Shown here piece by piece: positions 24,315 to 31,989 of a stretch of 32,000 nucleotides of DNA (the first letter of the stretch is position 1; each line of letters opens with the position of its first letter). The stretch lies in assembly GCA_025839675.1 (NCBI GenBank), contig CP104013.1:4770001-4802000 (forward strand). The letters run 5' to 3'. The notes under the pieces are model-generated. The model was not told where the DNA came from and ran no database searches. It was given only the letters and a program-made list of their open reading frames with translations. The stretch is from Candidatus Lokiarchaeum ossiferum. GTDB lineage: Archaea; Asgardarchaeota; Lokiarchaeia; Sigyniarchaeales; Promethearchaeaceae. The position numbers and the translations under genes are program-made.

Positions 24315-25205
24315 TTATTCAACCTTTGGTTCTTTATTCAATGAAGATTCCCCTTTTTCATCCGATTTCCCTTCTTCTGACTTCCCATCAAGTATCTCTT
24401 TGGGTTCCAGTTTGGGTTCGGGTTTTGGTTCTGATTTGGGTGGAGGGGGGGTTTTCTTAGAGATAATTACTTTTGCCGGACGAATAACCTCACCGTCCAT
24501 TTTATATCCCTTTTGAACAACTTGAATCACGGTATCTTCCTTTAAATCATCGTTGATTGTTTGCATTAAAACTTCATGCTGTTTATAATCGAAAGGAATG
24601 TTCACGTCTTCTATAGGGGTGACTTTGTAATTATTAAAAATTGATTTAAGATTGTTGTTAATCGCTTCAAATCCTTTGATGAAATTCGTGACTTGACAAT
24701 TTTCAGCGTCCACACTTTTTTCTAATGCTGCTCGGTTTTTGAAGGCCATTTCAAAACTATCGATGATAGGAGTAAAAGATGTGATTACTCTCATTCTTGT
24801 GCGATTTTCTGCCATTTTTTGCTGTTTTATATAATGCTTCCGCATATTTTCAAGTTCAGCCTGTAAGAAAGCAAATTTGGTTTGGTGTTCCTTAATTTCT
24901 TTGTCTTTTTTCTTGATTTCATCTTGAAGTTTTTCCACCTCTGTTTTTTTGGGTTCTTTTTTCTTCTTCTCTTTCTTTTGTTTCTCATTCTTATTTGTAT
25001 CAGAAGAATTTTGTTCGGTGGGATCTTGTTTGGCGGGAGTTTCTTCAGGGGTGGCCTGCGGAACTTCATCCTCAATTTGAGTTAAAACCTTATTAATTTT
25101 CTCTTTTGATTCTTCGAAATCCGGTTTTTCCTTAGAAGTTGGTTGTTCCATTTTCAAAAGTATATAAGGAAGAATATGATTTAAATTTTTCCTAATTGAC
25201 AACAA
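24315..25205 (-). CDS. grpE: GrpE nucleotide-exchange factor with K/E-rich N-terminal and P/K/E-rich C-terminal tails
   Basis: 296-aa ORF with a probable start at ATG 25151 (MEQPTSKEK). It has the long coiled-coil helix (LQAELENMRKHYIKQQKMAENRTRMRV) and the beta-domain FDYKQHEVLMQ...VIQVVQKGYKMDGEVIRPAKVIISK (family pattern fdP..HeAv......V..v.qkGY.l.grvlRpA.V.V.k). Confidence 0.85.
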   Translation of the reverse strand: MLSIRKNLNHILPYILLKMEQPTSKEKPDFEESKEKINKVLTQIEDEVPQATPEETPAKQDPTEQNSSDTNKNEKQKKEKKKKEPKKTEVEKLQDEIKKKDKEIKEHQTKFAFLQAELENMRKHYIKQQKMAENRTRMRVITSFTPIIDSFEMAFKNRAALEKSVDAENCQVTNFIKGFEAINNNLKSIFNNYKVTPIEDVNIPFDYKQHEVLMQTINDDLKEDTVIQVVQKGYKMDGEVIRPAKVIISKKTPPPPKSEPKPEPKLEPKEILDGKSEEGKSDEKGESSLNKEPKVE

Positions 25206-25363
25206 AAGGTTGGCTTATCACAAAAACAGTCTTCGAGTGAGAAAATATCGTTATTTATATATTAATCATTTTCCTAACTCAAATTTTTTTGGCTTTTTTC
25301 TTTTCCCGTTTGGAAGGTAACCCATATAGCATCACTAAATGAAGTAAATTATAGTGATGACTT

Positions 25364-27088
25364 TTGGCTGAAAATAACGAAAACAATACTACTCTGTCTG
25401 ATTCTCAACAACCAGAAACTGAAAAAAAATCATCGAAAAAGCAAAAACTCAAGAAATTTCAATTCTTTCCTAAAAAACGAAAGTGGGAAGAAAATTATGA
25501 TACAAATGGGGAATTTATTTCCAGATCACAAGATCGATTAACTCTTTATTCCGACTATTATGGACCCATTATTGAAGATAAAAACGGTCATAAAGCGGGT
25601 AAATTTTTCTTTGAAGAATACTATGAGTTAGGTCACATCCATCGATTTGGTGAATTTCTGTTAGTTCTGCTTTTTGGAATCTATTTTGCTTATGGGGGAT
25701 ATAACCTATATTATCTTGGTGGAGTTGTGCGTGATGCCTATGCAGATCTCGGTCTAAGTTTAACAACTGATTATGCTGAATATATGATATTTGTTCTCTA
25801 TATTATCCTCATTATCATTGGAATCTGGATATTATCATTAATCATTTCATATATCTTTGTAAGAATTTTTGCAGAAATTGCCGGAATTTTAATGTATATG
25901 CTTGTAATCATCGAAATTGGGTTATTGGTTCTTTTATACATCAAAATTGATTGGGAGTACAACTGGATTTTTATAGTTGCAGTGGTTCCCAATGTTCTCA
26001 TGTTGACATTTTGGTATAAAAAATTTAAAAAAGCAATTTATACCATTCGCATGAGCAGCATTGCTGTTGCAAAACAGCGGGAAATTTTGACTCCTCAAAT
26101 TACTCAAACACTATGGATTTTAGTTTTAGGCTTTTTCCATATTGTCACTTCCTTGGAAACCTTTTTGGATATTACTCCTATATCTGGAGCGACCTTTGAA
26201 CTCCAAGGAAAAGCAATTGAAGTCTCCAAGGGATGGATCTACTTTGGTTACACCGCTCTCTTCGTATTCTGCATTTTCACGATCTATTTTGTTTCTCAAG
26301 GTATGAAAATGCTCATGGTCCATAATTGGTATCGGGGAGGAGGAAGTTTGGGTTTCGGTAAAGCATATGGAATTATTCGCAAGCGATGGTGGGGAATTAT
26401 GGGCTATGCTTTCAATTCAACGCTCGTTCATATGGTTCAAGCATTTCGAAAAATGATCAAAGGAGAGTTTGGTCCTCAGAACATTAAAGAATGTTTTACT
26501 CAGACAGGAGAAATCATCCCGACTCAAGTAAATGCTCTTCGAACAAAAAAAAATACACCTTGGTATGAACGGGTGTGGATGAGTTTAAATTTCTATACAT
26601 TGCCTGCAATAGTGATTGAAAATCGTCTTTATCATCGGGCTCTCCTTCGTTCGTTGTTTTTGTCTATTCGTGATATCCCTTCTCGGTATATTAAAGCATC
26701 CAAAGTTAATGTCCTATTCAATTTTGTTAAATATGCCTTAATCATAATTAATGGCTGTATTGGTGCGTTAGTTGGGTATACATTTGCCAGTTTGTATGGT
26801 TTTCCTGAATTCACGACTTATATTATCACAGGACTTGCCGTGCCCGTTTTTATTTGGGTCGGAGGTGGAACAGCAACATTAATTGTAAATGATTTAAATA
26901 ATACTTATATCACTTTGCTGTATATCCACACAGTTGATGATTTGAATAACAAGGAACATTTCACGCTAAATGAGTTACAGAAATTAAAGGGTGATACATC
27001 CGTAGTGGTTGAAAAACCCAAATGGTACCAATTCAAAAAGAAACAGCAATTTGAAGAAGATGTATCAGTCGATCCAGACCAAAAATAG
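25364..27088 (+). CDS. Polytopic membrane protein, collinear by eye with the CTL/SLC44/Pns1 (choline-transporter-like) family
   Basis: 574 aa. The TTG start at 25364 is forced, because in-frame stops lie immediately upstream and the first in-frame ATG falls after TM1. It has a hydrophilic K-rich N-terminus and about 10 hydrophobic helices. Blocks resembling CTL-family conserved segments are [83 protein letters not shown] and [18 protein letters not shown]. The CDS call is confident. The family call is tentative. Confidence 0.5.
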   Translation: [574 protein letters not shown]

Positions 27089-30456: not shown

Positions 30457-31215
30457 TTAATCTTGCCAAATTCTTTCATTATCTTCAGGGTTCAACTCTT
30501 CATCAAGATTTTCTTGAAAACCGATCTTTTCTTTGTCTTGCTTGGGAGAATTTTCGGGAATCTCTGCCAAACCATCATCTTCTAAGTTAACATCAATTTT
30601 ATCATCGGGAAGTAATTTCATAGAGACTAATTCGGATCCATGTTGGACTCGGGACGATGTGACCGATATCTGTAATGAAGAAAGTACATAATTTAAGGTA
30701 AATTGGAAGCCTTTGTAAAAATCGGGTAGGATTGAAGTACCAAAAACGCGAATTTTATCCTTACCAAATTTTTTCTCAATGGCTAAGCGAATTGTGCTTA
30801 TTTTTTTTTCCCGCTTTTTATCAGAGGGAATTAAATCTATTTTGTGAAGCAGAACATACACGAACGGAATATCATAGCGAGATACGATGGTATTTAGCTG
30901 TTCCACCAACTCAAGTATTTTACGTTTCGAATGTCGACAATCGAAAATAATAAGTAATTCATCCGTTGCCGGAAAAATATATTCATTTTCTCTCTTAAAC
31001 CATGTTTCTAATTCTTGGCCAGCAAGGTCAAAAACTCCAATTTGTAAATTTCTCCATTGAAAATTAGAAACATCAATTCCTCGGGTTGGTTCAATAGAAC
31101 TTCTCAATATGACTTCAGGTTCGACATATCCAAAAGTAGTTAGGACAATCGAGGATTTACCACTCGCGGGAGGACCGACGAAAATTACTTTTTTTTCAAT
31201 TTCCATTATGATCAA
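30457..31215 (-). CDS. Rag/Gtr-like small GTPase (paralogue B), G domain plus short acidic tail
   Basis: 252 aa. The motifs are G1 VGPPASGKSS, switch I IEPTRG, G3 FDLAGQE, G4 in the Rag-type HKxD form (LLHKIDLI) and G5-like FGTSILPDFYKGF (RagA: FRTSIWDETLYKAW). The tail contains VNLEDDGLAEIP. Confidence 0.75.
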   Translation of the reverse strand: MIIMEIEKKVIFVGPPASGKSSIVLTTFGYVEPEVILRSSIEPTRGIDVSNFQWRNLQIGVFDLAGQELETWFKRENEYIFPATDELLIIFDCRHSKRKILELVEQLNTIVSRYDIPFVYVLLHKIDLIPSDKKREKKISTIRLAIEKKFGKDKIRVFGTSILPDFYKGFQFTLNYVLSSLQISVTSSRVQHGSELVSMKLLPDDKIDVNLEDDGLAEIPENSPKQDKEKIGFQENLDEELNPEDNERIWQD

Positions 31216-31245: not shown

Positions 31246-31989
31246 TCAATCACGATCTCGTTCAATTTCCTGGATGGTTAAATCTTTTTTGACTGTTGCC
31301 ATTTCATTATATCCGTTTGGGTTGACCTTCGGGACTTCTGCTAAACTATCATCGTCTAAATTAACGCCAATAAATCCTGCTGTCCGTAAACTTTTTAGCA
31401 ATGCTTCGGAGACTGGAACTGCTCGGAGTTCTTTCATATTTCGGACAGATATTTCCAAGGCGGTAAGCATCCAATCCATTTGAAATTTGAATTTTCCAAA
31501 ATGATCTGGAAATAGTGAAGTAGCAAAAATTTTGATCCGATCCATTCCAAAGGTATCATCAATATTCTTTTTTAAAGTCGCAATATAAGTTTCCCGCTCG
31601 TTGATGGTTTTTGCTTTATCAATTTTATGTAAAATAAGGTAATAATAAGGGATTTTAAACTTTTTAACAATGGAGAGTAACACTTTTATTAACCCGACGA
31701 TTTTTTTCGGATTCATACCAAACTCAAAAACAATGAGAAGTTCATCAGTTCCTGGAAAAATGAAATCTTGTTCATTAGTAAGAAAGAAATTGAGTTCTTG
31801 GCCTGAGAGATCATGAACTCCAATATTGACATGCCCATAACGATAAACTGAGTTCTCCATTCCACGTGTGGGTTCTGCTGGTGATGCTAAAATCAAATCT
31901 GGTTCAACAGAACCAAAAATAGACAACAATATTGAAGTTTTCCCGCAGTTCGGGGGACCTAAAATAACGAGTTTTTTATCAGAATCCAT
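31246..31989 (-). CDS. Rag/Gtr-like small GTPase (paralogue A), G domain plus short acidic tail
   Basis: 247 aa. The motifs are G1 LGPPNCGKTS, switch I AEPTRG, G3 HDLSGQE, G4 LILHKIDKA and G5-like FATSLFPDHFGKF. The tail contains VNLDDDSLAEVP. It is about 45% identical by eye to paralogue B over the G domain, and a 30-bp spacer separates it from the downstream paralogue. Confidence 0.75.
   Translation of the reverse strand: MDSDKKLVILGPPNCGKTSILLSIFGSVEPDLILASPAEPTRGMENSVYRYGHVNIGVHDLSGQELNFFLTNEQDFIFPGTDELLIVFEFGMNPKKIVGLIKVLLSIVKKFKIPYYYLILHKIDKAKTINERETYIATLKKNIDDTFGMDRIKIFATSLFPDHFGKFKFQMDWMLTALEISVRNMKELRAVPVSEALLKSLRTAGFIGVNLDDDSLAEVPKVNPNGYNEMATVKKDLTIQEIERDRD

Follow-up and report, generated by a model that had tools for sequence, protein, structure and literature searches.

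The CTL/SLC44/Pns1 (choline transporter-like) proteins have links to human disease, and their molecular function is unsettled. Their fold contains ten transmembrane helices, with amphipathic helices linking M4 to M5, M6 to M7 and M8 to M9 (PMC13160678). In human CTL1, an extracellular domain of about 150 residues (residues 63-213) is located between M1 and M2 (PMC13160678). The same study reports that neither CTL1 nor yeast Pns1 transports choline, and describes a central hydrophilic pocket with an unassigned ligand too large for choline as well as a conserved rear groove containing lipid- or sterol-like densities (PMC13160678). In a second study, CTL1 is lipid-modified and binds cholesterol; binding of phosphatidylethanolamine, phosphatidylserine and phosphatidylinositol, and also of phosphatidic acid, was found, the membrane became thinner and curved in simulations, and no choline transport was seen (10.64898/2026.10.02.755950). 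Here we analysed a gene at positions 25364-27088 of a 32,000-nucleotide stretch of Candidatus Lokiarchaeum ossiferum DNA (contig CP104013.1, positions 4,770,001 to 4,802,000; hereafter the window), whose genome is a single contig of 6,035,313 bp. Judged from sequence profiles and a predicted structure, its product (the query) is almost certainly a divergent CTL/SLC44/Pns1 homologue in both descent and fold. For the results as a whole, a divergent Lokiarchaeal member of this family, with the function proposed below, is very probably the best explanation.

The kinship of the query to CTL proteins is visible only through profile, transitive and structural evidence. P0024, a relative 44% identical to residues 78-544 of the query (E 6.6e-114), matches the Pfam family PF04515 (Choline_transpo; curated cut-off, 26.9 bits) with 39.8 bits over profile positions 2-320 of 326. 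P0039 (41.3 bits), P0023 (33.4) and P0043 (32.7), which are related at a greater distance, pass the cut-off as well, and collinear sub-threshold matches were obtained with P0012, P0019, P0028 and P0042. We compared two profiles with no sequence in common, A3 from 22 sequences of the query's own subfamily (the Loki type) and A4 from Asgard short forms of about 470 residues from other families. They were aligned by hhalign over 415 columns (99.93% probability, E 1.1e-35), the query alignment beginning at residue 97. Among PDB sequences, the A4 profile retrieved yeast Pns1 (9f63_A) by hmmsearch at E 2.3e-11, and the short forms match PF04515 directly with up to 65.4 bits. In a protein language-model atlas, an independent line of evidence, the query lies nearest to a Thorarchaeota DUF6159/PF04515 cluster (0.91), followed by eukaryotic CTL clusters (0.85). 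Weak Pfam matches of the query to DUF3382 and DUF6264, and one match to a PDB sequence at E 2, were discarded as chance.

The structure of the query was predicted with AlphaFold2 from a 21-sequence archaeal alignment, using no templates (mean predicted local distance difference test score (pLDDT), 77.4; predicted template modelling score, 0.78). The model contains ten transmembrane helices, where the original prediction had counted about ten, and three short amphipathic helices (AH1-AH3). Their order is that of the published CTL topology (PMC13160678):

M1, residues 94-129
M2/M3, residues 133-194
M4, residues 201-214
AH1, amphipathic, between M4 and M5, residues 218-237
M5, residues 239-268
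M6, residues 289-323
AH2, amphipathic, between M6 and M7, residues 331-339
M7, residues 342-365
M8, residues 400-419
AH3, amphipathic, between M8 and M9, residues 423-436
M9, residues 438-477
M10, residues 482-528

The Foldseek search of the model against the PDB, one of the checks that the original prediction had proposed, placed Pns1 and CTL1 at the top (E 1.1e-6 to 5.3e-4):

yeast Pns1, 9F63: E 1.1e-6
human CTL1, 9QU3: E 5.3e-5
human CTL1, 7WWB: E 5.3e-4
next-ranked match: E 1.6e-2, TM-score about 0.14

The homology claimed from the sequence is therefore supported by profiles and fold together, with no direct Pfam match. The parts of the gene are as follows:

25364..27088, + strand: complete gene for the 574-residue Loki-type CTL/SLC44/Pns1-like membrane protein (stop codon 27086-27088)
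25364..25543, + strand: disordered N-terminal tail, acidic and then Lys/Arg-rich, residues 1-60 (from composition, and pLDDT below 50 at residues 1-33)
25544..25642, + strand: module before M1 specific to the Loki type, residues 61-93, a predicted beta-hairpin (strands 66-72 and 77-81; from conservation)
25643..26014, + strand: helices M1-M4, residues 94-217 (from model helices and hydropathy; Pns1 aligned to model residues 90-541)
26015..26953, + strand: equivalent of the PF04515 core, AH1 to M10, residues 218-530 (homologues match PF04515 positions 2-320 of 326 here)
26576..26620, + strand: best-conserved motif of the Asgard family, in M8, residues 405-419 (from profile alignments)
26954..27085, + strand: charged C-terminal tail of low model confidence, residues 531-574 (from model and composition)

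The N-terminal tail, probably cytosolic, carries 11 Lys/Arg within residues 20-42, in line with the K-rich N-terminus noted earlier. In the module that follows it, Y62 and Y66 are invariant and the motif reads Y.DYYGP..ED.KG..AGKFFF.EY. The core is interrupted by a Loki-specific insert at residues 366-399. Only about 3 residues of loop separate M1 from M2 (helices 94-129 and 133-194), so a large extracellular domain is absent, as had been predicted. Across 22 orthologues, 35-81% identical to the query, 42 columns are invariant, including the polar or charged residues K315, H320, R324, R341, E402, R403, N409, E419, R429, Y442, K444, D510, N512 and D525.

The original prediction had further paired five blocks of the protein with blocks of human SLC44A1. 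We followed the pairing along the chain from the query to the A4 profile (hhalign) and from there to yeast Pns1 (hmmsearch):

block 1, the basic helix YKKFKK...
block 2, ...HNWY, with WY at residues 322-323
block 3, IRKRWWG...FRKMI, residues 338-365
block 4, ending ...RS, residues 408-430
block 5, C-terminal, T.L(Y/F)I.T.D

Each block pairs with the matching block of Pns1, in a register within about 1 residue of the pairing first proposed. In this transitive alignment, the invariant N409 is aligned to Pns1 Asn396, and the WY motif is also kept.

The gene itself was recovered with exactly the coordinates and length first given for it. Inspection of the open reading frame showed an in-frame TGA at 25358-25360, two codons upstream of the TTG at 25364, beyond which more than 150 codons pass before another ATG, GTG or TTG occurs in frame. 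The TTG is therefore the sole usable start, and the need for it stated in the original prediction stands. The orthologues of Promethearchaeum syntrophicum MK-D1 and related metagenome-assembled genomes have ATG at the equivalent position and share with the query the tail type, acidic and then Lys/Arg-rich. Only 29 relatives turned up when 1.84 billion representative proteins were searched exhaustively, so the Loki-type subfamily is small. The open reading frame is a real, single-copy gene of this Lokiarchaeal CTL-like subfamily.

To place the subfamily among the Asgard archaea, six-frame searches were run over 400 Asgard genomes, in which f1 is the family of the query and f3 is a family of the same order:

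A1 family profile: 138 of 400 genomes; f1, 12 of 13; f2, 1 of 1; f3, 0 of 135
PF04515 over cut-off: 100 of 400 genomes; f1, 0 of 13 (2 sub-threshold); f2, 0 of 1; f3, 0 of 135

The difference within f1 means that the curated model systematically misses the Loki type. None of the 135 f3 genomes, many of them 94-100% complete, matched A1, PF04515 or the HEAT-repeat solenoid described below, which looks like a clade-wide loss or absence as far as these queries reach. The cultured MK-D1 has a single copy of the Loki-type gene with 65% identity, and the named relatives of the gene belong to Promethearchaeum/Promethearchaeota, that is, Lokiarchaeia. A database search with a further alignment (A2) returned archaeal proteins only.

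These counts contradict the earlier statement that the CTL family has been described in eukaryotes alone. In the 100 genomes listed above, PF04515 exceeds its cut-off, archaeal relatives are already labelled PF04515 in database records, and a CTL/PNS1-like Asgard cluster is listed in a single line of an October 2026 preprint (10.64898/2026.10.28.762692). The proposal of a new eukaryotic signature protein candidate falls with it, the Asgard occurrence being already on record. Our literature search found no dedicated study of Asgard or prokaryotic CTL-like proteins, and only that preprint touches the link. The Asgard-CTL link itself is thus not new and the added value is incremental. What is new here is a divergent, Pfam-invisible subfamily that occurs in cultured Lokiarchaeia, carries an N-terminal module not shared with the short forms and has a candidate partner supported by a gene fusion.

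This candidate partner is a HEAT-repeat solenoid protein. In the genus g5 (genomes G135, which is complete at 4.36 Mb, and G137), an uninterrupted frame of 2037-2042 residues ends in a CTL-like domain of about 560 residues. Within its first 1460 residues, about 9 hydrophobic segments come first, and HEAT repeats then fill about 1000 residues. The genome of the query encodes the solenoid as a separate gene, whose product is 40% identical to the fused form over residues 7-1460:

L030:966-7079, - strand: fused solenoid-CTL gene, 2037 residues
C1:1178751-1183154 (locus L033), + strand: separate solenoid gene of the query's genome, 1491 residues, likewise with about 9 N-terminal hydrophobic segments and then about 1000 residues of HEAT repeats

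Residues 21-543 of the query align with residues 1473-1997 of the fused protein (P0025), and the solenoid is thus joined to the CTL-like protein at the Lys-rich tail of the latter's N-terminus. Fusion to this tail would, under the positive-inside rule, place the solenoid on the cytosolic side. With a threshold of E<=1e-30, searches for the solenoid gave matches in 13 of 13 other f1 genomes and in the 1 f2 genome, and none in f3-f7, a range close to that of the Loki-type CTL gene (f1, 12 of 13; f2, 1 of 1). The separate genes lie 3.6 Mb apart in the query's genome and about 65 kb apart in MK-D1. A physical partnership of the query protein with the solenoid is a tentative proposal, and we regard it as somewhat less probable than its absence. 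The label 'adaptin' was rejected for the solenoid. The Adaptin_N match of the fused protein is limited to positions 350-429 of the 524 in the profile, and the copy in the query's genome matches HEAT models only and not Adaptin_N; a search of PDB sequences with this copy gave no match. In addition, two Loki-type proteins, encoded by L031:370-3546 (- strand; genome G143) and represented by P0028 (907 residues), carry N-terminal extensions of about 390-530 residues with no Pfam match, possibly other fusions at the same tail.

By analogy with CTL1 and Pns1, the query may bind a lipid or another ligand rather than import choline, a reading to which we give slightly less than even chances. The protein would form a bowl in the membrane and would hold a polar lipid head group, or some other polar ligand, in a hydrophilic central cavity. 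It could influence the surrounding bilayer, possibly together with the solenoid, and its Lys-rich N-terminal tail would probably contact the membrane-anchored HEAT-repeat protein. A further reading, a clade-specific module of two proteins that would couple a solenoid in the cytosol to a CTL fold able to bind lipid and deform the bilayer, is unlikely.

Two other explanations have to be weighed against this proposal. The query could be a genuine secondary transporter whose substrate is choline, ethanolamine or another small organic cation of this kind. The name of the family and the older literature imply this, the historical annotation being choline transporter-like (PF04515 description). The set of polar and charged core residues invariant in the 22 orthologues would suit such a role, and CysZ, which comes nearest among the other folds, has been described as a sulfate permease. 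However, in two independent 2026 studies no transport of choline was detected for CTL1 or Pns1 and a role other than transport was proposed, the CTL1/Pns1 pocket residues appear not to be conserved in the query according to the transitive alignment, no gene of choline or ethanolamine metabolism lies nearby, and gene order is not conserved. We therefore consider a transporter quite improbable. The query could also be a branch of an old prokaryotic superfamily (DUF6159, GPDPase_memb and CysZ-like proteins) with no special tie to eukaryotic CTLs, and would then be no eukaryotic signature protein. Besides PF04515, the Asgard short forms match DUF6159 (up to 51 bits), GPDPase_memb (38.5 bits) and DUF7544, and NCBI names the Baldrarchaeal relatives 'GPDPase membrane domain-containing protein'. 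The transmembrane domain of WhyD, a bacterial GlpQ-type enzyme, has been reported to be remotely similar to PF04515, and CysZ is the third structural match. In contrast to the query, CysZ (PDB 3TX3), DUF6159 and GPDPase_memb are six-helix forms that lack M1-M4, with a far lower structural score, and hmmscan gave no match of the query to DUF6159 (PF19656) or GPDPase_memb (PF10110). By the matches of the short forms, DUF6159 and GPDPase_memb are related families whose core is exceeded by the predicted ten-helix architecture of the query. An origin in this superfamily with no special CTL tie is very unlikely.

For the preferred reading of a divergent CTL homologue with a ligand-binding role, the following results count on the other side. 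The query protein does not match PF04515 in hmmscan even at E<=10, a six-frame search of its whole genome with PF04515 gave nothing at E<=1, a search against NCBIfam returned no match, and PDB sequences are matched neither by the single query nor by the A1 family profile. The PF04515 check put forward in the original prediction is therefore split, negative for the query itself and positive for the 44%-identical P0024 at the score given above; the negative result for the query, taken alone, is misleading. In the pocket, Pns1 W390, E393, Y394 and H397 fall on R403, M406, S407 and F410 of the query, in a transitive alignment whose register is uncertain by a few residues. The single pocket tyrosine common to CTL1 (Y495) and Pns1 (Y394) is accordingly replaced by S407 within the same uncertainty, and the pocket ligand of the query, as far as the aligned residues indicate, need not equal the eukaryotic one. 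Since ether lipids make up archaeal membranes, a simple transfer of human CTL1's lipid ligands to the query is not warranted. The fusion to the solenoid is confined to one genus, and the co-occurrence of solenoid and CTL-like gene within a single clade therefore counts as one evolutionary event. Finally, when the 13 neighbours of the gene in the window were compared with the loci of MK-D1 and other relatives (tblastn, up to +/-10 kb), none was conserved, so that the gene context is uninformative on function.

With no neighbour conserved, we rejected an operon or neighbourhood reading, and with it any tie to the genes alongside for GrpE and an Arf-like GTPase. Several genes of the window are listed here in their own right:

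17716-20025, - strand: protein of 769 residues with a mu-homology domain (adaptor-complex medium-subunit family PF00928, 42.8 bits; cut-off, 31.6) and a C-terminal DUF11 repeat
23134-24249, + strand: Arf-family small GTPase domain (98 bits, residues 191-355) with a TTG start
24315-25205, - strand: GrpE homologue with a TTG start and, at both termini, long extensions rich in Lys and Glu, transcribed divergently from the CTL-like gene
30457-31215 and 31246-31989, both - strand: two Gtr1/RagA-like GTPase genes side by side (59 and 34 bits)

The Arf-family protein has an N-terminal extension of about 190 residues with no Pfam match, and the adjacency of the GrpE and CTL-like genes is not kept in the relatives. 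By its Pfam match, the mu-homology domain of this archaeal protein is a trafficking domain of eukaryote-like type, and the two Gtr1/RagA-like GTPases possibly form a Rag-like heterodimer pair. The Arf-family, Gtr1/RagA-like and mu-homology genes are the Asgard hallmarks of the window.

A ten-helix Asgard relative implies that the CTL fold predates eukaryotes. The archaeal form is stripped down, having no extracellular domain, sterols or lipidation, and should offer an easier probe of the core role of the family. The Loki-type subfamily is missed by Pfam-based censuses of eukaryotic signature proteins. Its occurrence in cultured strains (MK-D1 and the organism of the query) opens the idea of a solenoid-CTL pair to testing in culture; if the two-protein module were true, the connection of CTL proteins with membrane trafficking or organisation that is seen in yeast, plants and animals would have in it a forerunner from the archaea.

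Among known relatives, the Asgard short forms (about 460-510 residues; Thor-, Heimdall-, Hod-, Baldr- and Njordarchaeia-type) stand beside the Loki type. Both have homologous helices M1-M10, the motif (N)(Y/F)(F/Y)TLPAIVIE and one copy per genome. They are only about 20% identical, and the short forms match PF04515 and DUF6159 directly. The Loki type has about 75 extra N-terminal residues, comprising the charged disordered tail and the module at residues 61-93, as well as the insert at residues 366-399 and a charged C-terminal tail, and it alone is fused to the solenoid. Two short forms from two families of the same class (L018:1470-2939 and L022:1851-3374, both - strand) end in a zinc ribbon (Zn_Ribbon_1/DZR), a further lineage-specific cytosolic add-on. 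Another CTL-like type of Lokiarchaeia, with 673-709 residues, has a long C-terminal extension.

Compared with human CTL1/SLC44A1 (PDB 7WWB, 9QU3), the query is 12-14% identical and has the short M1-M2 loop in place of the extracellular domain. It therefore lacks the extracellular domain of metazoan SLC44A1-5 and is of the compact, Pns1-like type. The lipid modification and cholesterol binding of CTL1 are neither of them expected in an archaeal protein. Saccharomyces cerevisiae Pns1 (PDB 9F63) is likewise compact and has no metazoan extracellular domain. The two proteins share about 11% identity in the structural alignment with no direct sequence match, and the Loki form differs from Pns1 by its additional beta-hairpin module and core insert and by its host, an archaeon with ether-lipid membranes.

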